Shown here piece after piece: positions 8,564 to 31,140 of a stretch of 59,431 nucleotides of DNA (position 1 is its first letter; every line of letters begins with the position of its first letter). Both the position numbers and the translations under genes were made by a program. Location of the stretch: the NCBI GenBank assembly GCA_036560185.1, contig DATBRS010000246.1, positions 1 through 59,431 on the forward strand. The letters run 5' to 3'. Source of the DNA: Myxococcota bacterium. GTDB taxonomy: Bacteria; Myxococcota_A; UBA9160; UBA6930. The notes under the pieces were generated by a model. That model had not been told where the DNA came from. It did not search any database and saw only the letters and a program-made list of their open reading frames with translations.

Positions 8564-9341
8564 GCCGTTCCTCTCAGTTTTCGCAGGGCGAGCCCGACAT
8601 CGGTCTCGCGCATCAGCGACTCGCCGACCAAGTAGCCGCGCGCGCCCGCTCGCGCGAGCCGTGCGATGTCCTCGGGCGCGAAAATACCGCTCTCCGCGAC
8701 GACCACGGCGCGCCCAGCCGCCTTGGGGGCGAGCCGCTCGGTCACCGCCAGATCGGTGTGGAAGCTGCGCAGGTCGCGGTTGTTGATGCCGATCAGCGGC
8801 GCGCCGCACGCGAGCGCGACCTCGAGCTCGGCAGCGTCGTGCACCTCGACCAGTACCTCGAGCCCGCGGCTCGCGGCGTGCGCCGCGAACGCCGCGATCT
8901 CGCCTGGCGAGAGCGCCGCCACGATCAGCAGGATCGCGTCGGCGCCGGCGAGCCGCGCCTCGTCGATCTGATAGACGTCGACGACGAAGTCCTTGCGCAG
9001 GAGCGGCAGCGGAGTCGCAGCGCGCACGGCTTCGAGCACCGCGAGAGAGCCGCCGAAGTAGGACTCGTCGGTGAGCACCGAGAGGGCAGCTGCGCCCGCG
9101 GCGGTGTAGGCGCGCGCGATCGCCACCGGATCGAAGTCGCCGCGGATCTCGCCCCGGCTCGGAGACCTTCGCTTGATCTCGGCGATCACGCGCGCGCCCT
9201 CACCCCCCGCGAGCGCCGCGCGCAGGCTCACCGGCACGCGCGCGCAGGTCCGCGCGCGCGCCGCGATCGCTTCGGCGCTCTCGCGCCGCTTCGCGGCGGC
9301 GACCTCGTCGCGTTTGGTCGCGAGGATCCGCGCGAGGATCG

Positions 9342-9345
<4 letters not shown>
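8560..9345 (-). CDS. trpC: Indole-3-glycerol-phosphate synthase
   Basis: [47 protein letters not shown] and VAESGI. GTG 9345 overlaps the trpD stop. Confidence 0.97.
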
Positions 9346-10360
<1,015 letters not shown>

Positions 10361-19460: not shown

Positions 19461-19998
19461 GGCCCTGCGGCCGGCCGCGCTGCTGCGCGAGGAGCTGCCG
19501 CGGGTCGCGCACGCCAACGGGCGGCGAGCGGTGCTCGACCTCGCGTGCGGTCGCGGACGCAACGCCGTGGCCGCCGCTGCGGACGGCCTGCGCGTGGTCG
19601 GCCTCGATCGCGACGTAGCCGCGCTCGCCGAGCTGGGCGCGCGCGCGGCGAAGGCGCTTCTCGCGATCCAGCGCGTGCGCGCGGATGTCGAAGCGGGCCT
19701 CGGCCTGCCCTTCGCGAGCGACTCGTTCCGGGCGGTGCTCGTGTTCCGGTTCTTGTTCCGGCCGCTCGCGCCGGAGATCGTGCGCGTGCTCGCGCCGGGC
19801 GGCGTGCTGATCTACGAGACCTTCACCACCGCGCAGCGCGCGTTCGGCCGCGGCCCACGGCGCGATGCCTTCCTGCTGGCTCCCGGCGAGCTCGCGGAGC
19901 TGTTCCCGCAGCTCGAGTGCCTGCGCTTCGAGGAAGGCGTCTTCGACGAGCCGGAGCCCACCGCGCTCGCGCGGCTGGTCGCGCGCAAGCCGGCCTAG
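19450..19998 (+). CDS. Class I SAM-dependent methyltransferase (TehB-like)
   Basis: Motif I VLDLACGRGRNA, plus GLDRD, LVFRFLFR and LAPGGVLIYETF. Overlaps the glpQ end. Confidence 0.85.
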   Translation: MALEALRPAALLREELPRVAHANGRRAVLDLACGRGRNAVAAAADGLRVVGLDRDVAALAELGARAAKALLAIQRVRADVEAGLGLPFASDSFRAVLVFRFLFRPLAPEIVRVLAPGGVLIYETFTTAQRAFGRGPRRDAFLLAPGELAELFPQLECLRFEEGVFDEPEPTALARLVARKPA

Positions 19999-21080
19999 GC
20001 GCCGGCGCTTGGCGCCGCGGCTGCGGCGTCGATGCGCGCCAGCGCCCAGCGCGCGTGCTCCGCGACGCCCGCGTCGGCGCTCGCGGCGTGCCGAGCGACG
20101 GCTTCGCGCAGCTCCGCGCAGCCGCGGTTGCCGGCCGCCACCAGCGCGTTGCGCAGCAAGCCGCGGTACTTCGCGCGCCGCAGCGCCGTGCGGCGCGTGA
20201 CGGCGCGCCAGGCGTCTTCGTCGAGTGCGAGCAGCCACGCGAGCGTGGCCGCCTCGAGCGCAGGCCGCGGCGCGAACTGCGCCCGCAGCGCCGCGCCGGC
20301 GGCGCTCGCCGGCTCGGGGCTGCGCGCCGCGCGCGCGTTCCACGGGCACACCTCCTGGCACACGTCGCAGCCGAACACCCAGTCGCGCTGGGGGCCGCGG
20401 AGCGCCTCGGGAATCGCGCCGCGCAGCTCGATCGTCGTGTACGAGAGACAGCGTGTGGCATCGAGCACGTAGGGTTCGGGGAAGGCGTCCGTGGGGCACG
20501 CGTCCAAGCACGCGCGACACGTGCCGCAGTGGTCGGGCTCCTCCGCGTCCGCAGGGAGCGCCAGATCCGTGATCACGATGCCGAGGAAGAAGTACGAACC
20601 CAGCGCGCGGTCGATCAGCAGCGTGTGCTTGCCGATCCAGCCGAGCCCGGCGCGCGCCGCCGCGGGGCGCTCGAGCACCGGGCCGGTGTCGACGTAGGAG
20701 CGCAGCGCGATCGGCGCGGCCGCCAGCGCCTCGATGCCGCTCTCGAACGCGTCGAGGCGCTCGCGCAGCACCTCGTGGTAGTCGTCGCCGCCGGCGTAAC
20801 GCGCGATCCGGCAATCCGCGGCGCCCGATTCTTCTCGCGCCTCTGCAGGCGCGTAGCGCAGCGCGACGGCGATCAGGCTGCGCGCACCCGGCACGAGCCG
20901 GCGCGGGTCGATGCGTTCCTCGACGCGGCGCGCGAGGTACGTCATCTCGCCGGCGTAGCCGCGCGCGATCCACTCGCGCAGGAATGCGTTCCGCGGCGCC
21001 GGCGCGGCCGGCCCGAAGCCGACTCGCTCGAAGCCCAGCGCGAGGCCCAGCGCGCGCACGCGCTCGGCGAGCGAGCTCAT
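19995..21080 (-). CDS. queG: tRNA epoxyqueuosine(34) reductase
   Basis: IARYAGGDDYH, YVDTGPVLER, GLGWIGKH, Fe-S motifs CGTCRACLDACPT and RCLSY...GCDVCQEVCPWN. ATG 21080 overlaps the exosortase stop. Confidence 0.96.
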   Translation of the reverse strand: MSSLAERVRALGLALGFERVGFGPAAPAPRNAFLREWIARGYAGEMTYLARRVEERIDPRRLVPGARSLIAVALRYAPAEAREESGAADCRIARYAGGDDYHEVLRERLDAFESGIEALAAAPIALRSYVDTGPVLERPAAARAGLGWIGKHTLLIDRALGSYFFLGIVITDLALPADAEEPDHCGTCRACLDACPTDAFPEPYVLDATRCLSYTTIELRGAIPEALRGPQRDWVFGCDVCQEVCPWNARAARSPEPASAAGAALRAQFAPRPALEAATLAWLLALDEDAWRAVTRRTALRRAKYRGLLRNALVAAGNRGCAELREAVARHAASADAGVAEHARWALARIDAAAAAPSAGA

Positions 21081-21934
21081 GCCGCGAGGCGCTGCTCGAC
21101 CCGGCGCAGGCCGGCGTCGGCCGCCAATAACAAGCTCACCGCGATCACGTAGATCGAGAGCCCGAGCGCGGTATGCACCCAGCCCGTCGTCGCGCGCTCG
21201 AGGCCGATCACGGGGCACAGCAGCACGGTCATCACGACACGCGCGAGGTTGCCGACCAGCGCGGCTGGAATCACGAGGGCGATCAGCGCGAGGCGGGTTC
21301 GCCGCCGATCGAGGCTCAGGAACGCGAGCAGCACGCCGATCGCGGTCAGCGTGTAGAGCGAGGTGGCGCCGCTGCACGCGGCCGCGACCTCGACTTGCAG
21401 GCCGCCAGCCATCTGGATGACGTAGCCGTCGAGGTAGACCGGCACGCCGAGCGAATACAGCGTCGCCACGGACCACTCCGACGCCCAGCCCTGGAGCCAC
21501 ACGACCAGCGGCCCATGCCACTCCTCGGGCGGCGGCACCATGAACAGCAGGTAGGCGAGCGGGAAGGCGAGCGCGCGCACCCACGGCCAGCCGCGCCGCA
21601 GCCAGAGCAGCCCGACCACGCTGATCACGACCCCGAGGCCCGCGATCGTCAGCGCTGATCCGAGCAGGCCGCCGAACGCGAGCGCGAGCCCGCCGCCGAG
21701 GGCGGCCAGTGCGCGCAGATCGCGGCTCGATTCGAGCGCGCCGAGCTCGGCCGTGCGGCTGGCCGCCACGAAGCCCGAGACGACCGGCACGAGGAAGCCG
21801 TGCGACATGTGCTCGGAGCTCCACCACATCCTGCCGAGCGCGATCAGCACGGGGCCGAGGACGGCCAGGAGCCCCGCTGCGAGTAGCTTGTCGTTGGCAG
21901 CCACGCGCAAGCCGGCATTCGACGCGTCGGTCAA
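21077..21934 (-). CDS. Exosortase / archaeosortase family transpeptidase
   Basis: SHGFLVP, LAFPLAYLLFMVP, catalytic Cys in EVAAACSG, Arg in GNLAR and His in WVHTALG. About 8 TM helices. TTG 21934 follows a GGAG SD. Confidence 0.88.
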   Translation of the reverse strand: MTDASNAGLRVAANDKLLAAGLLAVLGPVLIALGRMWWSSEHMSHGFLVPVVSGFVAASRTAELGALESSRDLRALAALGGGLALAFGGLLGSALTIAGLGVVISVVGLLWLRRGWPWVRALAFPLAYLLFMVPPPEEWHGPLVVWLQGWASEWSVATLYSLGVPVYLDGYVIQMAGGLQVEVAAACSGATSLYTLTAIGVLLAFLSLDRRRTRLALIALVIPAALVGNLARVVMTVLLCPVIGLERATTGWVHTALGLSIYVIAVSLLLAADAGLRRVEQRLAA

Positions 21935-22048
21935 TGTTGCTCCAGCTCGATCGGCGCAGTATCGGCGGGCGGCGCGCAAAGTGGAATGGCCACGAGCACA
22001 TCACGAACTCGGCGCGCGCGCGACTCACTTGACACCGGCCACGCGCCG

Positions 22049-23074
22049 ATGGAAGCCGCAATGCAAGACCGCCTCGCCTTTTTGATCGGCGCGCCGCGCT
22101 CCGGCACCACGCTCACGGCGCGCATGCTCGGCGCGCATCCCGACGTGCTCGCGCCGCCCGAGCCGCACCTGATGCCCCCGCTCGCGCACCTCGGGCTCCA
22201 CGAGCGCGTGGATCAGGCGCCCTACGACCCGGTCATCACGCAGATCGGCCTGCGTGAATTCGTGGCCGGCCTGCCCGGCGGCGAGCGCGACTACCTCGAC
22301 GGCCTGCGGCGCTTCACCGATCACCTCTACGAGCGCGCCCTCGCACCCAGCGGGCGCCGAATTTACCTCGACAAGACGCCCGCTTACGCGCTCGTCCTCG
22401 ACTTTCTCGCGAAGCTCTATCCGCAGGCGAAGTTCATCGTGCTGACGCGCCATCCGATCGCGATCTGGTCGTCCTACGTCGACTCGTTCTTCGCTGGTGA
22501 CGCCGCCGCGGCGCACGCGCGGAATCCGCTGCTCGAACGCTACGTGCCGGCGATCGCGCGCTTCCTGCGCGAGCGCCCCGTCCCGCTGCTGCACGTTCGC
22601 TACGAGGCGCTGGTGCGAGAGCCGGAGCAACAGCTCGGGGCGATCTGCAAGTTCCTCGGCGTCGACTTCGAGCCGCGCATGATCGATTACGGCGCCGCGG
22701 AGGGCGTGGCCCGCCCGGTGGCTTCGGGCCTCGGCGACCCAGTGGGCGTCGACCGCCAGAGCCGGCCGACCACGCAATCGGTCGGGAAGTGGGCGGAGGC
22801 GCTGGCTGCGGACCCGGTCCGTCTGGCGCAATCGCGCGAGATCGCGGCGCGCCTCACCGACGCAGATCTCGAGATCTGGGGGTACGCGGGACCGGCGCTG
22901 CGTCGTGCGCTCGCGGAGATCGCTCCCACGCAAGCAGGCCCGAGCCGCGCGCAGCTCTCGCGCTACGCGCTCGAGCGCCGACTCCTGGTCGCCCTGCGCC
23001 GTGACATCCACCGCAACGCCCTCGGCCGCTTGGTGCGGCGCGTGCGCACGATCTGCGACGTGCTGCTGCGCTGA
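22049..23074 (+). CDS. PAPS-dependent sulfotransferase
   Basis: 5'-PSB loop IGAPRSGTT, YLDKTP, 3'-PB motif LTRHPIAIWSS and VRYEALV. The start could be 22049 or 22061. Confidence 0.9.
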   Translation: MEAAMQDRLAFLIGAPRSGTTLTARMLGAHPDVLAPPEPHLMPPLAHLGLHERVDQAPYDPVITQIGLREFVAGLPGGERDYLDGLRRFTDHLYERALAPSGRRIYLDKTPAYALVLDFLAKLYPQAKFIVLTRHPIAIWSSYVDSFFAGDAAAAHARNPLLERYVPAIARFLRERPVPLLHVRYEALVREPEQQLGAICKFLGVDFEPRMIDYGAAEGVARPVASGLGDPVGVDRQSRPTTQSVGKWAEALAADPVRLAQSREIAARLTDADLEIWGYAGPALRRALAEIAPTQAGPSRAQLSRYALERRLLVALRRDIHRNALGRLVRRVRTICDVLLR

Positions 23075-23085
23075 AGCGCGGCCCC

Positions 23086-24015
23086 TCAGCGCGACGCGGT
23101 CGCGACCAGGTGCTGCACGCGGGGATCCATGAGCGCGGCGAGGGTGTCGCCGGCTTGCACGCGGGCGCGCAGCGCCTCGTCGGCGAGCAGATCCTGGAAG
23201 GCGGGGTCCTCTTTCACGCGCCGGAGCCGTGGGCCGACCTCGGCCATCACCACGGCGAGCGCGTCCTGAAATTGTTGGGCGTCGACGGCGGCGGTCGCGG
23301 GCACGAGACCGAGCGCTGCGAAGCGACCGCGGAGCTGCGCGTCGCGGGCCAGCTCAGCGAAGGTCGGGCGCGCGAGGGCGCCCGCGACGTCGCCGCTCTC
23401 GAGGTCGCGCCAGAAGCCCGCGTCGGATTGCAGCACGCGCACGCGCGGATCCGCGGCGATCTCGCTCAACGCCGCGATGCTCTCGCCGGGCCGCGCGATC
23501 CAGTGCGTCACGACGCGCGTGCCGCCGTCGCCGTTCGCGCCGATGCGCTCAGCGGCAGCGCCGGCGACCGCCTGACCCACGGCGGCGGAACGAGCCCCCG
23601 ACAGGTCCGGCAAGCCGCCGGCTGGATTCAGCTGGCGCACGCTCTCGGCGAAGCCCGCGAGCCACAGGATCGGCAGCAACAGCAAGGCGCCGCGCGCGAT
23701 CCCGAGCAGCGAGCCGAGCGCGCGAGACGCGTCGGAAGCGTCGTCGTCGGCTGCCGCCCGCACCTTGCGCGCCGCGATCTCGACCAGCCCCTGCGCCCCC
23801 AGGAACCCGAGCGCGCCTGCGGCGACCAGGCCGAGCCACGGTGCCACGCCGAGCGCGTCGGCCAGCGGTGCGCCCGCGAGCTTGCCAGCGCCCCACCCTG
23901 CGGCGTAGGCAACGGCCAGCCCGACGAGGCGCACGCCGCTCTCCGCTGCGCCGCGGTGCGCGCCGAGCCACGCGAGCGCGAAGAGCGCGAGGACGACGAC
24001 GAGATCGATCGCCAT
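23086..24015 (-). CDS. CvpA-family membrane protein with a long soluble C-terminal extension
   Basis: N-terminal DLVVVLALFALAWLGAHRG and SRALGSLLGIARG are CvpA hallmarks. About 4 TMs are followed by roughly 150 aa of hydrophilic helical sequence. Confidence 0.75.
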   Translation of the reverse strand: MAIDLVVVLALFALAWLGAHRGAAESGVRLVGLAVAYAAGWGAGKLAGAPLADALGVAPWLGLVAAGALGFLGAQGLVEIAARKVRAAADDDASDASRALGSLLGIARGALLLLPILWLAGFAESVRQLNPAGGLPDLSGARSAAVGQAVAGAAAERIGANGDGGTRVVTHWIARPGESIAALSEIAADPRVRVLQSDAGFWRDLESGDVAGALARPTFAELARDAQLRGRFAALGLVPATAAVDAQQFQDALAVVMAEVGPRLRRVKEDPAFQDLLADEALRARVQAGDTLAALMDPRVQHLVATASR

Positions 24016-24060: not shown

Positions 24061-24101
24061 TGCAGCATCGGCGCTGCAGGGGTGCAGGATTCGGCCTGCA
24101 C
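24061..24101. promoter_or_regulatory. Tandem palindromic enhancer-like sites (putative upstream activator sequences for the sigma54 activator)
   Basis: TGCAGC-atcggc-GCTGCA (24061-24078) and GTGCAGG-attcgg-CCTGCAC (24082-24101). Both have a 6-nt spacer and their centres are 22 bp apart. Confidence 0.7.
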
Positions 24102-24150
24102 TTTTGACGCGCGATTCGGCGCGCGGACGCCGCTGCGTGCGAATCAGCGC

Positions 24151-24166
24151 TGGCACGCCGGTTGCT
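24151..24166 (+). promoter_or_regulatory. sigma54 (-24/-12) promoter of the kinase-regulator operon
   Basis: TGGCACGCCGGTTGCT matches the TGGCAC-N5-TTGCW consensus with exact GG-N10-GC spacing. Confidence 0.85.
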
Positions 24167-24198
24167 CTTTGGACTCGTCCATGCTGCGATGGAACGCA

Positions 24199-25280
24199 AT
24201 GGACCAGCACCCCGGCGACTGGCGCGACCTGCGGCGCGCGATGCGCGACGCACGCCGCGCGGCGCGTCGAGCGCGCATGGGCGGCTACGGGCTCGCGCCT
24301 CGGCAAGACCTGACGCCCGAGCAGCGGGCCCTGCGCGACGCCAAGCGCGCCGCCGACGCGCGCATCGGCTTCCTGATCCACGGCACGATCTACGCGCTCG
24401 TGATCTTCGGAATCCTGATCAGCGGCGGCTTCGTGGCCGCGCTCACGACGGCGATCTTCTGGGGCATCGGCGTCGCCTCGCATTTCATCGCCGCGATCGC
24501 GGGGCCGGAGCTGCGCAAGCGCTGGATCGAGCAGCAAGTCGCGCCACGGGTCGTCACCGAGACTCAGCAACAGCGCCGCGATCTCGAGGGCGAGCAAGCC
24601 CGCCGCGTCCAGCGGCTCTCGGCTTCGCTCGCACACGAGATCCGCAATCCGATCACCGCGGCCAAGAGCCTCGTGCAGCAAATGGGCGAGGACCCGGCCG
24701 CCGCGGAGAACGTGAACTACGCGCAGGTCGCGCTGCAGGAGCTGGAGCGCGTCGAGCGCTCGATCGCGCACTTGTTGAAGTTCGCGCGCGAGGAGGAGCT
24801 GAAGCTGGCGAGCGCGCGGCTCGACGAGATCGTGATCTCCGCGCTCGCGACGCTGCGCGATCGCATGCGCGACCTCGGCGTGAAGCTCGAGACGGACACC
24901 GCGGGCGCCGGCGCTTTGACGTGCGACGCCGAGCAGCTGCGGCGCGTCGTGATCAATCTCGCGACCAACGCGCTCGACGCCCTGCGCGACGCGAAGACTC
25001 CGGCCCCGCGCCTGCGCGTCGCGGTCGGCGAGAACCTCGCGGGCACCGAGGCGTGGCTGTCGGTGCGCGACAACGGGCCTGGCATTCCGGCCGAGCATCT
25101 GCCGCGCCTGTTCGATCCGTTCTTCACCGCCAAGGACGGCGGCACCGGCCTCGGCCTCGCGCTCGCCAAGAAGATCGTGGACGCCCACGGCGGAACGATC
25201 GAGACGAAGAGCGAGCCGGCGCATGGCGCCGAGTTCGTCGTGACGCTGCCGAAGTCCCGGCCGAGCGCGGGAGCACAGGC

Positions 25281-25284
<4 letters not shown>
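24199..25284 (+). CDS. Sensor histidine kinase with N-terminal 2TM domain
   Basis: 2TM-like segment GFLIHGTIY...FWGIGVASH...RKRWIEQQV. H-box LAHEIRNP, N-box VVINLATNALDA, G1 VRDNGPGI, F-box LFDPFFT and G2 GGTGLGLA. The start could be 24181 or 24199. Confidence 0.92.
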
Positions 25285-26693
<1,409 letters not shown>

Positions 26694-26759: not shown

Positions 26760-26775
26760 AGGCACGCGTAGGGCA
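26760..26775 (+). promoter_or_regulatory. Possible secondary sigma54 promoter upstream of pspA
   Basis: AGGCACGCGTAGGGCA has GG-N10-GC spacing and a good -24 element (GGCACG), but the -12 element is degenerate (GGGC instead of TTGC). Confidence 0.35.
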
Positions 26776-26809: not shown

Positions 26810-27556
26810 ATGGACTCGCACGATCGACCCGGCTTCTTCGCACGCCTCGGCTCCCTGATGCGAGGGCTCGGCTTCGGCTGGGTGCGCGATCGCGAGGAGC
26901 GCAACCCGCGCGCGGTGTACGAGCAGGCGATTCAGGCGCGCCTCGGGCAGTACCGCTCGCTGAAGGACGCCGTCGCCGGCATCCTCTACACCCGTAACAA
27001 GCTCGAAGCCGAGCTGGCCGAGCGCCGCCACGAGCTCGCTCGCACCGTCGACGACATTCGCCGCGCGCTCACGCGGAGCGACGATGCCGCCGGCCTCGCG
27101 CTGGTGCAGCACAAGCAGAACGTGCTGGCGGACGTCGAGCGCGTCGAGCGCGAGGTCGAGACGCTGCGCGGCGAGGCCGAGGACGCGAAGAAGAACCTGA
27201 TGCGCTTCCGCGAGGAGATCCGCTCGCTCGAGCACGAGAAGGGCCGCATGCTCGCGGCGCTCGCCAGCGCGCGCGCGCGCCGGCGCATGCACGAGGCGCT
27301 CGACGGCCTGTCGGTGGAAGCCGACGTGCAGGCGCTCGAGAACGTGCGCATGCACGTGCAGCGCTCCGTCGCCGCCGCGACGCTCGAGCGCGAGCTCGGC
27401 GCGGGCGACGAGACCACGCAGCGCATCCGCGCGCTGCGCCGCGAAGCGATCGAGGAAGGCGCACGGCGCGAGTTCGAGGAGCTGAAGCGCCTGCACGGCG
27501 CGCACAACGTCGCCGCGCTGGCGGGCCGCGAGGTCAGCGCGGGCGGGCTCGCGTGA
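26810..27556 (+). CDS. pspA: PspA/IM30 (Vipp1 / ESCRT-III-like) family protein
   Basis: N-terminal amphipathic helix GFFARLGSLMRGLGFGW, the conserved Pro in ERNPRAVYEQAI, long coiled coils, DDAAGLALVQHK and ALDGLSVEAD. GGAGG SD. Confidence 0.85.
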   Translation: MDSHDRPGFFARLGSLMRGLGFGWVRDREERNPRAVYEQAIQARLGQYRSLKDAVAGILYTRNKLEAELAERRHELARTVDDIRRALTRSDDAAGLALVQHKQNVLADVERVEREVETLRGEAEDAKKNLMRFREEIRSLEHEKGRMLAALASARARRRMHEALDGLSVEADVQALENVRMHVQRSVAAATLERELGAGDETTQRIRALRREAIEEGARREFEELKRLHGAHNVAALAGREVSAGGLA

Positions 27557-27590
27557 GCGCGCACTGCCGCGCGGAAGGTGGAGGGCTGCG

Positions 27591-28082
27591 ATGAGCACGG
27601 ACGCGCGCGCGCTCCCCGAATGGACCGACGCGCTCGCGCGTCCGCGCCTTCCCGCGCGGCAACAGCGCGACGACGAGCGCGAGTTCGCACCCGCGCTGCG
27701 CGCCATCGCGCGGGCCAAGAAGCTGGCTCCGCAGCTCCAGCTGCTCGGGCGCGTGCACACGTTGTTAGGCGCGGCGGCGCTCAGCGCCGCGCTCGGCGCG
27801 AGCGTCGTCCTCGGCGGCGCCGTGCTGTTCGCGAGCCCGGTACCGCAGTGGGCGCTCGCCGTGGGCGGGGCGCTGGTCGCAGCGCTCGGGCTGCTCGGCC
27901 TTCCCTGGCTCGCGTTGGGCTTCGGCCTGCGCCGGCGGCGCGCGTGGGCACGCACGCTGGGCTTCGTTTGCAGCGCCGTGCTCCTGCCCTTCGCGCCGCT
28001 CGGGACCGCGCTCGCGGCCTGGACGCTCGTGGTGTTGCTCGGCTGGAACCCGGCCCTCGCACGGGCGGCCGGGGCGGACTGA
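27591..28082 (+). CDS. Small multi-pass membrane protein
   Basis: About 4 hydrophobic segments and the motif LGFGLRRRRAWARTLG...LLPFAPLGTALAAWTLVVLL. GGAGG SD; lies 34 nt after pspA. Confidence 0.7.
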   Translation: MSTDARALPEWTDALARPRLPARQQRDDEREFAPALRAIARAKKLAPQLQLLGRVHTLLGAAALSAALGASVVLGGAVLFASPVPQWALAVGGALVAALGLLGLPWLALGFGLRRRRAWARTLGFVCSAVLLPFAPLGTALAAWTLVVLLGWNPALARAAGAD

Positions 28083-28153
28083 ACGAGCGCGCGCGGCCGC
28101 AGCCGCGGCGCGCCATCCCGCCTAGCATGCGCTCCTCACACCGAGGAGCCGAC

Positions 28154-28942
28154 ATGTCCGAGCAAGTCGTCCTGGTCGAGCGCGCGGACGGCCTTGCGGT
28201 CGTCACGCTGAATCGGCCTGCATCGCGCAACGCGCTGAACGCCGCGCTGCGCCGCGGCCTGCGCGACACGTTCCGCGAGCTGGAGAACGATGCGAGCGTC
28301 CGGGCCGTGATCCTGACGGGGGCGGGCAAGGCGTTCTGCGCCGGCCTCGACCTGAAGGAAATGGGCGAGCGCGGCCCCGGTGCGGGCGGCGAGGGCGAAG
28401 CCGGGGGCCTCTCCCACGGGCTCGTCGAGACGATCGAGCGCTATCCGCATCCGGTGATCGGCGCGATCAACGGCGTCGCGATCACGGGCGGCTTCGAGCT
28501 CGCCCTCGCCTGCGACGTGCTGGTCGGCTGCCCGGAGACGCGCTTCGCGGACACGCATGCGCGCGTCGGCATCCTGCCGGGCTGGGGGCTCTCGCAGAAG
28601 CTCTCGCGCGTGATGGGCCCGTGGCGCGCGAAGCTGGTGTCCTTCACCGGCAATTTCATCAGCGCCGACGAGTCCGAGCGCTGGGGCCTGCTCGCGCGGG
28701 TGGTGCCGAGCGATCAGCTGATGCCGACCTGCCGGCAGCTCGCCAAGGACATGCTCTCGTGCGTGCCCGGCGCGCTCGCCGGCTACAAGCGCATGATCGA
28801 CGAGGGCTACGCGATCAACTACGGCGACGCGCGCGCGCTCGAGGTGAAGCTCTCGAACGAGCACATCCGTTCAGTTTCGGCGAAAGACATCGCCGAGCGG
28901 CGAGCGGGCGTGGTCGCGCGCGGGCGCTCGCAGAGCTCGTGA
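28154..28942 (+). CDS. Enoyl-CoA hydratase / crotonase family protein
   Basis: TLNRP..RNAL, AFCAGLDLKE, AINGVAITGGFELALACD and FADTHARVGILPGWG, where His replaces the second catalytic Glu. GAGGAG SD. Confidence 0.93.
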   Translation: MSEQVVLVERADGLAVVTLNRPASRNALNAALRRGLRDTFRELENDASVRAVILTGAGKAFCAGLDLKEMGERGPGAGGEGEAGGLSHGLVETIERYPHPVIGAINGVAITGGFELALACDVLVGCPETRFADTHARVGILPGWGLSQKLSRVMGPWRAKLVSFTGNFISADESERWGLLARVVPSDQLMPTCRQLAKDMLSCVPGALAGYKRMIDEGYAINYGDARALEVKLSNEHIRSVSAKDIAERRAGVVARGRSQSS

Positions 28943-28975
28943 GCCCCGCGCAGCGGTGAGCTCCGCGCGGCGCGC

Positions 28976-30556
28976 CTAGCGGTCGGTCTCGCGCTCGAAG
29001 CGGAGCTGCGCCGTGACGACGACGCCCTCCTCGGCGAGCACCGCGAGCGCTTCCTGTGCGCGCATCGAGAGCTGCGCGGCGTCGAGGGTGAGCCGTATGC
29101 CGAGCTGCTCGACGCGAAGCGCGCTCGCCTCCGCGCGCGCGCGCGGCACGTCGACGATGCGCTGCATCGTGGCCTCCTTCTCGTCGCGGTCGTCGAGGCC
29201 GGGCGCGCTCACGAGGTCCGACTCGGGCAGCTTCAGCTCGAGCGCGGGCTCCTCCTCCTGCGGGAACGGATTCTCGGCCGCCGGCAGAATCTCGAAGCCA
29301 TCAGTGATCTCTTCGAGCGCTCCGCCCGAGACGGCGCTCGTGCGGTTGGTGGGCTCCTCGGCCAGCGCCGCGAGCTCGAAATCCTCGCCGTTCTCGCGCG
29401 CGGCGGCTTCGAGCGAGAACTGCGTGGCGCGCCCACGCTCTTGCGGCAACCCCGGAGTGGGAGCTGGGCCGTTCACTTCGCTGCCGATCGGCTGATGGTC
29501 GAGCACGAAGGTCAACTCGAACGACTCGATGCGCACGACGTCGCCGACGGCGAGCACGTGCTTCTTCGTGCGCTGTCCGTTCACGTAAATGCCGTTCACC
29601 GACTCGAGATCCCGCACCTCGTAGCCCGCGGGCGACTGCGAGAACAGCGCGTGCCGGCGCGAGACGCCCGCGTCGGAGAGCATGATCTCGCATTCCGGCG
29701 CGCGGCCCGCGCACAGCTCGCCGTCTTCCCACGGCCGTAACAAGTGCAGCTTGCCGTCGCGCTGCACGATCAAGCCCGCGTAGAGCTTCGCGTCGCTCGC
29801 GGCGTCCGCGGCCGCCGCCGGTGCCGCCGCACGCGCCGAACCCTCGGCCGCCGCGGGCGCGCCGAAGTCGAACAGCGAGGTGTGCTCCGGATTCGGCGTG
29901 GCGCCTCCGCCACTCGCGACCGTGCCGAGCACCGCATCTTGCTCCGCCGGCGCGAGGTCGTCCTCGCCGAACGCGAACACGCCGTCGGGATCCGGCGCGG
30001 AGTTCGCGGCCGGCGCCTCCGCCGCGAGCTCCTCGGGCGTCAGCTCCTCGGGCGTGAGCTCGAACGGCTCGCTCTCCTCGCTCGCGGGAGCGGGCGCACT
30101 GGGCGCACGCGTCGCCGGAGCGGCGGGCGGTGCGACCTTTGGGGGCGCGCTGGCGGGCTTCGCCACCGCGGGCTGCGCATCGAGTGCCAGGAACGTCTGC
30201 GACGCGTCCCAGGCGTCGCTCGGCCGCGCCTTGGGCCCGCTCGCGAGCTTCGGTCCCGCCTGGACCACGATTCGCAGCTCGTACTTGCCGAGCTGCACGA
30301 CGTCGTTCACGGCCATGGGCACGACGCCTTGGATGCGCTCGCCGTTCAGCTGCGTGCCGTTCTCGCTGCCGAGATCCTCGAGCTCGAAGCCATCGCCCTC
30401 ACGGCGCAGCGTGGCGTGAAAGCGGCTCACCGCGAGGTTGTTCACGACCACGTCGTTCTCGCGCATGCGGCCGATGCGAAGCTGCGGGCCCACGAAGGCG
30501 ACCTCGCTGAGCAAGCGGCCCTTGAGCGAAAGCTGAACCCGGGGCGAACCCGCCAT
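28976..30556 (-). CDS. Protein with two FHA domains and acidic low-complexity linkers
   Basis: FHA1: IGRMRENDVVVNNLAVSRFHA...DLGSENGTQLNG. FHA2: AGRAPECEIMLSDAGVSRRHA...DLESVNGIYVNG. ATG 30556 follows a GAGGGA SD. Confidence 0.88.
   Translation of the reverse strand: MAGSPRVQLSLKGRLLSEVAFVGPQLRIGRMRENDVVVNNLAVSRFHATLRREGDGFELEDLGSENGTQLNGERIQGVVPMAVNDVVQLGKYELRIVVQAGPKLASGPKARPSDAWDASQTFLALDAQPAVAKPASAPPKVAPPAAPATRAPSAPAPASEESEPFELTPEELTPEELAAEAPAANSAPDPDGVFAFGEDDLAPAEQDAVLGTVASGGGATPNPEHTSLFDFGAPAAAEGSARAAAPAAAADAASDAKLYAGLIVQRDGKLHLLRPWEDGELCAGRAPECEIMLSDAGVSRRHALFSQSPAGYEVRDLESVNGIYVNGQRTKKHVLAVGDVVRIESFELTFVLDHQPIGSEVNGPAPTPGLPQERGRATQFSLEAAARENGEDFELAALAEEPTNRTSAVSGGALEEITDGFEILPAAENPFPQEEEPALELKLPESDLVSAPGLDDRDEKEATMQRIVDVPRARAEASALRVEQLGIRLTLDAAQLSMRAQEALAVLAEEGVVVTAQLRFERETDR
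30027..30061. repeat. 15-bp tandem duplication within the FHA gene (ELTPE-ELTPE-EL)
   Basis: agctcctcgggcgtc / agctcctcgggcgtg / agctc. Confidence 0.8.
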
Positions 30557-30669
30557 GCGATCCCTCGCGCGCGAAGAGAGGTTTCCTGCATACGGCTCTT
30601 CGCCGCGCAGGTGCATGGACTTGACCCCCGAACGCGCGGGAGGAACGCGACGGCGCGCCCCGGCGTGCG

Positions 30670-31140
30670 TCAGCCCTCGTAGCGGATCGCGGCGATCACG
30701 ACCGCGGCGTCGCCGCGCGGGCGGCGTACCGTCACCTCGTCGCCCTCGCCCTTGCCCATCAGCGCCCGGCCCAGCGGCGACTCGATCGAGAGCAGGCCTC
30801 GGCTCGGATCCGACTCGTCCGGCCCGACCAGCCGATACTCGACGCCTTCCCCGGACTCCTCCTCGACCGTCACGAACGCGCCGAAGTAGATGCGGTCGCG
30901 CCGCGCCGGCGGCTCGCTCACGATGGTCAGCGAGTCGAGCTTTTGCTGCAGGAAGCGCAGCCGGCCGTCGATCTCGCGCAGCCGCTTCTTGCCGTAGATG
31001 TACTCGGCGTTCTCGCTGCGATCGCCGAGCGCGGCGGCGTCCGCCACCTGCGCCGTCACGCGCGGGCGCTCGACGCGCCACAGGCGCTCCGCCTCTTCCT
31101 GTAGGCGCCGAAAGCCCTCGGGCGTGATGTAGCTGCCCAT
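30670..31140 (-). CDS. greB: Transcription elongation factor GreB
   Basis: [47 protein letters not shown] and [13 protein letters not shown]. Confidence 0.96.

Follow-up and report, generated by a model that had tools for sequence, protein, structure and literature searches.

The window analysed, a 59,431-nucleotide stretch of DNA from a Myxococcota bacterium, encodes a histidine kinase whose only input part is the 2TM domain, a hairpin of two transmembrane (TM) helices. The kinase gene heads an operon that continues with the genes of an NtrC-type response regulator, PspA and, in this genome, a small membrane protein. Judging by its sequence, the protein is most likely a class-I histidine kinase that is bifunctional and of the intramembrane-sensing type, which would respond to membrane stress and drive PspA from a sigma-54 autoregulated operon. 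We tentatively propose that the hairpin itself could perceive the stimulus.

The kinase and its transmembrane hairpin

The kinase gene is located at 24181..25284 (+). Its start is uncertain, since the gene callers and several relatives choose the ATG at 24181 (MLRWNAMDQ..., 367 aa), 18 nt upstream of the ATG at 24199 (361 aa); residues are numbered here from the latter. The translation of 24199–25284 opens with MDQHPGDWRDLRRAMRDARRAARRAR... and includes the Arg-rich cytoplasmic leader noticed in the initial annotation. The Pfam matches are 2TM (PF13239, residues 47–114), HisKA (138–200), and HATPase_c (243–353). The 2TM pattern had been read from the sequence of two closely spaced TM helices, and the profile search suggested as its check gave 27.1 bits with a cut-off of 24.8 (E = 4.5e-6), which makes the protein a member of the family. 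A six-frame scan of the whole genome revealed a single 2TM match (24337–24540, 30.5 bits), the only such domain in the genome. Neither HAMP, PAS, GAF nor periplasmic domains were found in the kinase by the Pfam search. The earlier statement on the missing domains extends to the family: 2TM, HisKA, HATPase_c, and nothing else were detected in all 104 relatives scanned (best 2TM E = 4.7e-10), all of them from metagenome-assembled genomes.

The transmitter core (24610..25257, +) is of the ZraS/AtoS type according to Pfam, NCBIfam, and Foldseek. HisKA scores 39.6 bits and HATPase_c 100.7 bits, and the boxes HEIRNP (with H146 at 24634–24636), NLATNALDA, DNGPGI, FDPFFT, and GTGLGL are invariant in the relatives. 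The presence of the H, N, G1, F, and G2 boxes points to a class-I (HisKA) sensor histidine kinase. The best NCBIfam matches, ZraS (NF007688, 156 bits with a cut-off of 479) and AtoS (NF008468, 183 with 646), align over the transmitter core only and lie far under the equivalog cut-offs, so the kinase belongs to neither equivalog. The best Foldseek match of the kinase model is the ZraS cytoplasmic domain (9jfj, E = 5e-20).

The Arg-rich N-terminal tail (residues 1–37, 24199..24309, +) contains a helix at residues 6–27 in the AlphaFold2 model. Across the 104 relatives, this tail is 13–89 aa in length, with a median Arg content of 27% and a median net charge of +5, and no conserved sequence was found in it. 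The 2TM domain (24337..24540, +), defined by Pfam, the genome scan, hydropathy, AlphaFold2, and conservation, consists of a juxtamembrane helix, TM1 (56–76), a GGF turn, TM2 (79–102), and a P103/R106 hinge; its motif in the translation is GFLIH(61)GTIY(65)...W(88)GIGVASH(95)...W(109). The hydrophobic stretch from R55 to E104 is unbroken and corresponds to two helices with a turn of about three residues (G76-G77-F78). In the AlphaFold2 model (mean pLDDT of 85.5, and 92–97 in the hairpin), a helix spans residues 40–76, is broken at residue 77, and is followed by a single helix (78–163) that runs from TM2 through the H-box helix. This uninterrupted helix rules out HAMP, and it bears out the direct helical run to the H-box that had been described. 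The topology prediction, the other check suggested, indicates an N-in/C-in hairpin in which the periplasmic loop is almost absent (hydropathy and AlphaFold2). No meaningful match to the hairpin was found in a sequence search of the PDB, and the Foldseek matches concern the kinase core and BceS only.

Conservation within the hairpin is not uniform. H61, W88, G89, and H95 are invariant in the 104 sequences; for Y65, G77, G91, P103, and R106, conservation is at least 90%. In both TM helices, conservation follows the 100-degree helical period, which gives one conserved polar/aromatic stripe per helix: F58-H61-Y65 in TM1 and W88-G89-G91-H95 in TM2. Given their equal distance from the turn, H61 and H95 may be in contact. 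The helical linker from P103 to the phospho-acceptor H146 (24505..24633, +; AlphaFold2 and spacing counts) contains no HAMP and is of fixed length: the distance between P103 and H146 is 44 residues in 102 of the 104 relatives. For H95 and H146, 42 loci have a spacing of 51 residues and 14 loci one of 47.

The intramembrane-sensing class of Mascher comprises kinases with an extracytoplasmic linker of less than 25 residues and a total length of under about 400 aa. The layout read from the sequence in the initial annotation was that of this class, and the operational definition fits the kinase: two TM helices are its sole input, the turn between them is of about three residues, the length is 361–367 aa, and there is no other domain. 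The accessory membrane protein that acts as a sensing partner, which is a usual feature of the class and not a part of its definition, is not found in the operon.

Operon, promoter and PspA

The intergenic region between cvpA and the kinase gene contains two elements. An imperfect inverted repeat with TGCAGG-N6-CCTGCA within it (24071..24112, repeat search) is a candidate enhancer site for the NtrC-type regulator. A consensus sigma-54 -24/-12 promoter, TGGCACgccggTTGC (24151..24165, +), is located 16 nt ahead of the ATG at 24181 and is the sole match in the window when at most one mismatch is allowed. Of 77 related loci, 39 have a GG-N10-GC site (at most two mismatches) ahead of the first kinase gene, and these include nearly all of the PspA-linked Myxococcota loci. 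The kinase gene is followed by the gene of the response regulator (25281..26693, +), which comprises a REC domain, a sigma-54 AAA+ domain with GAFTGA, and a Fis-type HTH; the GTG start of this gene overlaps the kinase stop (GTGA).

The next gene encodes a PspA/IM30 family protein (26810..27556, +; PF04012, 52 bits with a cut-off of 33.9), which is the only one in the genome according to a whole-genome scan. In most PspA-linked relatives, pspA directly follows the regulator gene. The order of kinase, regulator, and pspA recurs in uncultured Myxococcota and Binatia, and pspA stands behind the regulator in 53 related loci, mostly after a gap of 10–130 nt, which reaches about 600 nt in some Binatia loci. 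The link to PspA implied by the initial annotation is operonic and conserved across two phyla.

A sigma-54 element between the regulator and pspA was found in only one of the 53 loci. A second site in the window (26760–26775, aGGCACgcgtaGgGCa) was rejected as a conserved promoter: it has three mismatches and has no counterpart in 52 of 53 relatives. Therefore, pspA is most likely co-transcribed with the kinase gene. Together with the promoter, the gene order suggests that the operon is most likely sigma-54-driven and self-activating. PspB was not found in the genome, and no protein among its 18 sigma-54 activators reaches the cut-off of the PspF equivalog. Three PspC-domain proteins are encoded elsewhere in the genome, all on other contigs.

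The last gene of the operon (27591..28082, +) encodes a small membrane protein without a Pfam family. In the related locus L083, one reading frame encodes PspA and the homologue of this protein as a fusion of 382 aa (44% identity over 126 residues, E = 2e-19), and on this ground the small membrane protein is likely to be the membrane partner of PspA in this subclade. It was discarded as a universal partner, since the RRRxWAR...PxGT motif after pspA was found in only six of the 49 loci that were scanned for it, and the window itself accounts for two of these six. No universally conserved accessory membrane protein was found among the loci scanned, and the operon contains no ABC transporter or LiaF-like gene.

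Relatives and the reach of the 2TM signature

A second, tandem kinase is common in the relatives, and it has lost both TM histidines. In the tandem-kinase loci, the paralogue adjacent to the regulator lacks them in 11 of 11 cases; it retains two TM helices and the whole cytoplasmic part, while the TM motif residues have decayed. Therefore, the motif is not needed merely to anchor or dimerise the protein. These paralogues form one weakly supported clade (90/94, under the starring threshold of the tree).

Relatives of the Polyangiales type keep the motif and have no pspA adjacent to the kinase gene and no sigma-54 site; their pspA genes are located elsewhere, also without sigma-54 sites. Thus, pspA does not accompany the kinase family everywhere. 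NtrC-type regulators with developmental roles are numerous in myxobacteria, and the Polyangiales kinase–regulator pairs without adjoining pspA could be understood if the kinase read an unrelated metabolic or developmental cue, outside any envelope-stress circuit, with pspA as a passenger. We consider this highly improbable: pspA trails the regulator in two phyla without a promoter of its own, the genome has only this pspA and no PspF, and the kinase has no domain able to bind a soluble ligand.

The hairpin is also found far beyond this family. In a search with the hairpin profile, about 3,500 protein clusters carrying the module were found. In 150 diverse 2TM proteins retrieved by the profile, 149 of which match PF13239, the equivalents of F58, H61, Y65, W88, G89, G91, and H95 are at least 90% conserved. 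The signature recurs in proteins that consist of the module alone and in Ser/Thr kinases, LytS-type kinases, a cyclase, and a Toastrack protein. Other members of the family stand alone (about 90 aa), form tandem repeats, or carry the module C-terminal to a Ser/Thr kinase, cyclase, LytS-type kinase, or Toastrack part; in the C-terminal position, the modules are often repeated and far from the catalytic domain. Among small proteins, the only close stand-alone relative found was one truncated kinase fragment, and the stand-alone 2TM proteins were reached by the profile search. Given its presence in stand-alone and varied signalling proteins, the hairpin is a portable membrane module and is not peculiar to this kinase. 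Since the TM histidines are equally invariant in modules with very different outputs, they are a property of the module, and the candidate sensor role proposed for them in the initial annotation would accordingly concern residues invariant module-wide.

The distant position of the C-terminal modules could mean that the hairpin only anchors or dimerises the kinase and that the input comes through the Arg-rich tail, the juxtamembrane helix, or the DHp loop SLVQQMGEDP, for example by binding of anionic lipid head-groups or of a soluble factor. The tail is indeed always basic, with its helix predicted with high confidence, and the degree of conservation seen in the TM motif is matched by the juxtamembrane helix, which is Ala-striped (A44/A48/A52), and by the DHp loop. 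Nevertheless, this explanation is improbable in our estimate. A mere anchor needs no invariant His, Trp, and Gly within the bilayer, and the second-kinase paralogue, which keeps its helices and cytoplasmic part, has lost exactly those residues. In turn, the tail varies in length and lacks conserved sequence, and the fixed number of residues between TM2 and the phospho-acceptor His suggests that the signal travels along the helix joining them.

Perception of the stimulus and comparison with known systems

In the mechanism that we propose, the hairpin itself would perceive a perturbation of the cytoplasmic membrane inside the bilayer; lipid packing, thickness, or a proton leak at the inner leaflet are the candidates. 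The perceiving element would be the stripe F58-H61-Y65 facing the stripe W88-G89-G91-H95. By way of the P103/R106 hinge and the helix of fixed register, the change would reach the DHp and switch the kinase from phosphatase to kinase activity. The phosphorylated regulator would then open the sigma-54 promoter upstream of the kinase gene, and the kinase, the regulator, and PspA would rise together. PspA would repair the membrane, the stimulus would drop, and the phosphatase activity (HExxN motif) would reset the system. Four parts of this scheme are conjectural: the nature of the stimulus, its perception by the hairpin without a partner, the direction in which the kinase switches, and the negative feedback through PspA.

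Direct sensing by the hairpin in a self-activating pspA operon remains our preferred reading, with the tentativeness stated above. As for sensing, it is consistent with the lack of another input domain, the invariant TM residues, the fixed TM2-to-His spacing, the 11 paralogues without TM histidines, and the lack of a universally conserved accessory membrane protein; retention of the signature across module fusions fits a portable signalling input. The operon part is in agreement with the overlapping genes, the conserved order, the promoter upstream of the first kinase gene, and the fact that the PspA and 2TM genes are the only ones in the genome. On the other hand, the characterised intramembrane-sensing kinases BceS, LiaS, VraS, SaeS, and GraS depend on an accessory protein. 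The C-terminal, repeated, and distant modules resemble an anchoring or oligomerising element more than a helix-coupled sensor, the Polyangiales-type relatives keep the motif without adjacent pspA or a sigma-54 site, and sensing might in fact be done by the three PspC-domain proteins.

Possibly, the same operon logic holds and the hairpin only docks to a partner protein and transduces a stimulus delivered by it. Such a partner might be PspA (free or membrane-engaged), the membrane protein encoded downstream of pspA, one of the PspC-domain proteins from outside the operon, or, in loci that have it, the degenerate second kinase. Every intramembrane-sensing kinase studied so far receives its stimulus in this way (BceAB–BceS, LiaF–LiaS, VraT–VraS), and in E. 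coli, PspA titrates PspF. PspA would always be co-expressed with the kinase, as the operon order suggests; the fusion in L083 points to recruitment of PspA to a dedicated membrane partner in this clade, there are three PspC-domain genes in the genome, and the stripe of conserved residues on each TM helix might just as well be a protein–protein interface. We regard this explanation as somewhat less likely than direct sensing by the hairpin. The motif of the downstream protein is bound to a subclade, and pspA is the sole accessory gene conserved across the family. Besides, the signature is kept in stand-alone 2TM proteins and unrelated signalling proteins without PspA nearby, as well as in the Polyangiales kinases without adjacent pspA. 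Finally, the regulator appears to lack the Trp of the PspF loop contacted by PspA, since it reads SPRRERPF where E. coli PspF would have SRWQGPF.

An extension of direct sensing, which we consider speculative and unlikely, is that the 2TM module is a ligand- or proton-binding sensor of membrane energetics and a general, unrecognised input domain. The two histidines, at equal depth near the cytoplasmic face, would form a network with the Gly/Trp/Tyr stripe and the interfacial Arg. In the dimer, this network might bind haem b (bis-His) or a quinone; alternatively, it might be switched by protonation and so read a proton leak. The operon would then be a self-contained Psp system in which the kinase replaces PspBC and the PspA–PspF partner switch.

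Among known systems, LiaFSR–LiaIH of B. subtilis is similar in that the control of a PspA homologue (LiaH) and its membrane anchor (LiaI) lies with a small two-TM kinase with a minimal loop (LiaS), which acts via a two-component regulator, and in that the operon is autoregulated. However, LiaS has HAMP, a HisKA_3 DHp, a NarL-type regulator, and a sigma-A promoter and needs the inhibitor LiaF, whereas here HAMP and LiaF are absent, the DHp is of the HisKA type, the regulator is NtrC-type, and the promoter is a sigma-54 one. Unlike in LiaFSR, pspA shares the operon with the kinase, and the membrane parts are not homologous. Given no HAMP or HisKA_3 match, the continuous helix 78–163, and the NtrC-type regulator, the kinase does not belong to the LiaS family.

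In the enterobacterial Psp system, which concerns inner-membrane integrity, pspA is expressed from a sigma-54 promoter under an AAA+ enhancer-binding protein, and a promoter and an activator of these kinds that would drive pspA are found here as well. PspF, however, lacks a receiver and is kept inactive by PspA, and sensing is performed by PspB and PspC. Here, the activator bears a receiver and is coupled to a kinase, the promoter precedes the kinase gene and not pspA, PspB is absent, and PspC domains are encoded outside the operon. The closest transmitter cores by sequence and structure belong to ZraS/ZraR and AtoS/AtoC of E. coli, in which a HisKA kinase likewise acts with a sigma-54 regulator of the NtrC type; ZraPSR serves in envelope stress. 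ZraS differs in its large periplasmic metal-binding domain and AtoS in its PAS, and the output here is PspA and not ZraP.

BceS is likewise shorter than 400 aa and lacks HAMP; only a very short loop separates its two TM helices, and a helix leads straight to the DHp. The whole kinase model aligns with BceS in 8g3a over 330 columns (Foldseek, rank 36). In contrast to the kinase described here, BceS senses via an ABC transporter, acts on an OmpR-type regulator, and has unrelated TM sequences without the PF13239 signature. Apparently, the kinase would work like the Firmicute intramembrane kinases BceS and LiaS, with a membrane part, DHp type, and regulator type that are not homologous to theirs, and it belongs to neither of their families. 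With PF13239 proteins in general, it shares the same hairpin and the F..H...Y / WGxG...H signature.

PspA/ESCRT-III repair is, to our knowledge, universal, and only two ways of switching it on are understood: titration of PspF by PspA in enterobacteria and LiaFSR in Firmicutes. The kinase appears to head a third wiring, widespread in two poorly studied soil and marine phyla and seen only in uncultured bacteria, which combines an intramembrane-type kinase with a receiver-bearing sigma-54 activator and so has elements of both known ways. As a membrane sensor, the kinase could hardly be more minimal. Its loop-less hairpin is rigidly coupled to the catalytic core, which makes it a clean model for a kinase reading the bilayer, and the paralogue with a dead motif is a natural built-in control. 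It could also give the first functional handle on Pfam's uncharacterised 2TM domain.

In the literature searched, nothing was found on PF13239, including its function, on kinases with a 2TM domain, or on the control of pspA by a sigma-54 activator that contains a receiver. The kinase–sigma-54–PspA wiring was not found in the main text of the two large Psp surveys searched. The literature matches for "2TM domain-containing" concern the "glycine-zipper 2TM" of SlyB, which is unrelated to the 2TM of PF13239.

Architecture and predicted topology of the kinase

The open frame at 24199-25284 (+) contains no stops and encodes a protein of 361 residues; an in-frame ATG at 24181, which is the choice of the recorded gene call (367 aa) and of several relatives, would add MLRWNA to the N terminus. 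Pfam detects 2TM (PF13239; residues 47-114, 27.1 bits where the gathering score is 24.8), HisKA (138-200) and HATPase_c (243-353), and no other domain. When the complete 4.3 Mb assembly is scanned in six frames, the segment 24337-24540 is the sole 2TM match (30.5 bits). The Arg-rich leader RRAMRDARRAARRAR and the 2TM pattern (GFLIH61GTIY65, W88GIGVASH95, W109) described in the initial annotation can all be read in the translation, and its central observation, a histidine kinase with a 2TM domain as the only input, is confirmed. By its layout, the protein counts operationally as an intramembrane-sensing kinase, which supports the interpretation given in the initial annotation. As judged from the genes, it is probably an envelope-stress kinase of this type within a Psp-like circuit.

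Hydropathy analysis reveals a single unbroken hydrophobic stretch from R55 to E104, which fits two helices joined by a G76-G77-F78 turn and therefore leaves no part exposed to the periplasm. The 16 Arg/Lys residues in the N-terminal 62 residues, together with the cytoplasmic kinase core, indicate an N-in/C-in hairpin. In the AlphaFold2 model, built from 104 homologues (mean pLDDT 85.5, and 92-97 over residues 41-100), the Arg-rich tail is a predicted helix (6-27), the juxtamembrane helix and TM1 form one predicted helix (40-76), the helix breaks at residue 77, and TM2 through the H-box is one unbroken helix (78-163), which excludes HAMP. Counted from the turn, H61 is 16 residues upstream and H95 17 residues downstream, so both should be located at equal depth in the cytoplasmic leaflet, and Y65 and W88/G89 should be close to mid-bilayer.

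Conservation of the hairpin and the tandem second kinases

A protein search revealed 7,520 relatives, all originating from metagenomes and nearly always annotated just as "signal transduction histidine kinase" of uncultured Myxococcota or "Deltaproteobacteria". Among 104 relatives, H61, W88, G89 and H95 never vary, and Y65, G77, G91, P103 and R106 show conservation of at least 90%; every one of these proteins contains 2TM, HisKA and HATPase_c with no further domain. The N-terminal tail ranges in length between 13 and 89 residues and is Arg-rich throughout (median 27% Arg). Conservation peaks at a 100-degree period in both TM helices, so each has a single conserved face. P103 and the phospho-acceptor H146 delimit a stretch of 44 residues in 102 of the 104 sequences, and the distance from H95 to H146 is 51 residues in 42 of the fetched loci and 47 in 14 others, a difference of about one helical turn. 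Such a fixed register is what rigid helical transmission would require.

The hairpin is not confined to these kinases. A hairpin-only profile of 27 sequences from both phyla, searched against 1.84 billion representative proteins, matched 3,488 clusters at E ≤1e-3, and 149 of the best 150 proteins match Pfam 2TM. About 100 of the best 150 consist of 2TM alone, many of them 90-120 residues long and some with two to seven repeats. In others, 2TM is N-terminal to HisKA kinases or C-terminal to Ser/Thr kinase domains, a nucleotide cyclase, LytS-type His_kinase domains or a Toastrack domain, the last being already tied to Psp/Lia systems (PMC11237479). The C-terminal fusions (P0232, P0183, P0225, P0243, P0201, P0175 and P0262) often carry two or three copies, and their 2TM modules are close relatives of the kinase hairpin. 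One further match is weakly similar (E 1e-4) to the Rv2743c family, the mycobacterial PspA partner. Throughout the best 150 proteins, the positions equivalent to F58, H61, W88, G89, G91 and H95 show conservation of at least 90%. The TM histidines pointed out in the initial annotation are therefore the hallmark of a portable membrane module and not a peculiarity of this kinase. A bolder and rather improbable reading is that a cofactor or a proton is bound by the His/His-Gly-Trp-Tyr network, which would thereby report on membrane energetics. A sequence search for solved structures gave no match to the 2TM module, and a literature search found no paper on its function; the matches for "2TM domain-containing" deal with a different entity, the glycine-zipper 2TM of SlyB, which is unrelated.

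Many relatives encode two tandem kinases ahead of the regulator gene. The upstream one keeps the complete 2TM signature; the regulator-adjacent one retains two TM helices and the linker, has a nearly identical H-box and no Pfam 2TM match, and in all 11 cases lacks the equivalents of both H61 and H95 (L084:7221-8294 and the second kinase of loci L004, L005, L006, L009, L014, L019, L024, L030, L034 and L036). In the maximum-likelihood tree, these degenerate paralogues form one clade (support 90/94, under the tree's starring threshold), and the window's kinase lies outside it, among the single kinases bearing the motif. Since the second kinases keep both helices without either histidine, the signature residues are dispensable for anchoring or dimerising kinases of this family, which argues for some further role. 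That the hairpin is merely an anchor and the input is cytoplasmic is unlikely. The degenerate kinases could be heterodimer partners or dedicated phosphatases.

The operon and its proposed mechanism

The kinase stop codon overlaps the GTG start of the gene for an NtrC-type regulator (25281-26693), which comprises REC, a sigma-54 AAA+ domain with GAFTGA and a Fis-type HTH. A PspA/IM30 gene (26810-27556; PF04012, 52 bits) begins 117 nt beyond it. The consensus sigma-54 promoter TGGCACgccggTTGC at 24151-24165 is the single match in the window at no more than one mismatch, and an imperfect palindrome lies upstream of it. A survey of 80 loci, on contigs of one genome per species, showed the regulator after the kinase in virtually all cases. 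PspA comes next in most of the Myxococcota that belong to the window's class, in Binatia and in a single Thermodesulfobacteriota MAG. Of 77 loci, 39 have a -24/-12 element ahead of the first kinase gene, among them nearly every PspA-linked Myxococcota locus; such an element stands between the regulator and pspA in just one of 53. This placement points to a single self-activating operon, in which kinase, regulator and pspA are presumably co-transcribed from a predicted start site. The sigma-54-like element aGGCACgcgtaGgGCa at 26760-26775, 35 nt before pspA, is unconserved in relatives and hence probably not functional.

Polyangiales-type relatives keep the 2TM motif with neither an adjacent pspA nor a sigma-54 site. 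The coupling of the kinase to PspA is thus a trait of the window's lineage and of Binatia and does not extend to the entire kinase family. A circuit unconnected with the envelope is very improbable.

Our overall reading, a tentative one, is that the hairpin is itself the sensor of cytoplasmic membrane disturbance. The change would pass the P103/R106 hinge and run along the fixed-register helix to reach the DHp, and the kinase would phosphorylate the regulator, which would switch on the operon's own sigma-54 promoter and raise PspA. Membrane repair would end the stimulus, and HExxN phosphatase activity would reset the system. Possibly, though with a lower probability, the operon logic is the same and the signal is delivered by a partner (PspA, the membrane protein or a PspC protein); to our knowledge, every intramembrane kinase studied so far receives its signal in this way. 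In the window's genome, PspA is encoded only once, in the kinase operon, and three PspC-domain genes lie on other contigs, apart from it (C103:1009-1182, C130:9258-9425 and C211:14735-14908). PspB was not found in this genome, and its 18 sigma-54 activators all score below the PspF cut-off.

The membrane protein gene (27591-28082), located 35 nt after pspA, encodes 163 residues with no Pfam family assigned. In L083, a 65%-identical relative, PspA and the membrane protein homologue form one 382-residue polypeptide (8582-9730, the counterpart of window 26810-28082), and this natural fusion suggests that the product is a membrane partner or anchor of PspA. The protein was rejected as a core part of the operon: the RRRxWAR...PxGT motif follows pspA in just 6 of 49 scanned loci, so it is a clade-specific addition.

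Known systems and flanking genes

The transmitter core is closest to AtoS and ZraS, both far under the equivalog cut-offs (183 bits versus 646 and 156 bits versus 479, respectively). ZraS 9jfj is the top Foldseek match of the kinase model (E 5e-20). The intramembrane kinase BceS of the BceAB-S complex aligns with the whole model at rank 36. BceS/LiaS and the kinase have no membrane sequence, DHp type, regulator type or accessory protein in common. Sigma-54 and PspA are shared with the enterobacterial Psp system, whose PspF lacks a receiver domain and is titrated by PspA, whereas here a phosphorylated activator would take its place. The regulator has SPRRERPF at the position that would correspond to the SRWQGPF segment of E. 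coli PspF. In the main text of two broad Psp surveys (PMC11237479, PMC9239133), no Myxococcota or Binatia systems, no receiver-containing sigma-54 activator adjoining pspA and no 2TM kinase were found.

The divergent neighbour of the kinase (23086-24015, minus strand) encodes a membrane protein of the CvpA/colicin V production family (PF02674, 34 bits) whose C-terminal extension is long and soluble; this neighbour is also present in L083 and absent from L084, another related locus. The operon flanks (19995-23074 and 28145-31081) are syntenic with both loci, and contain queG-like, exosortase EpsH and sulfotransferase genes upstream, and genes for an enoyl-CoA hydratase and a large FHA-domain protein downstream on the minus strand. 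The membrane protein and hydratase genes of L084 are separated by an inserted DDE transposase.
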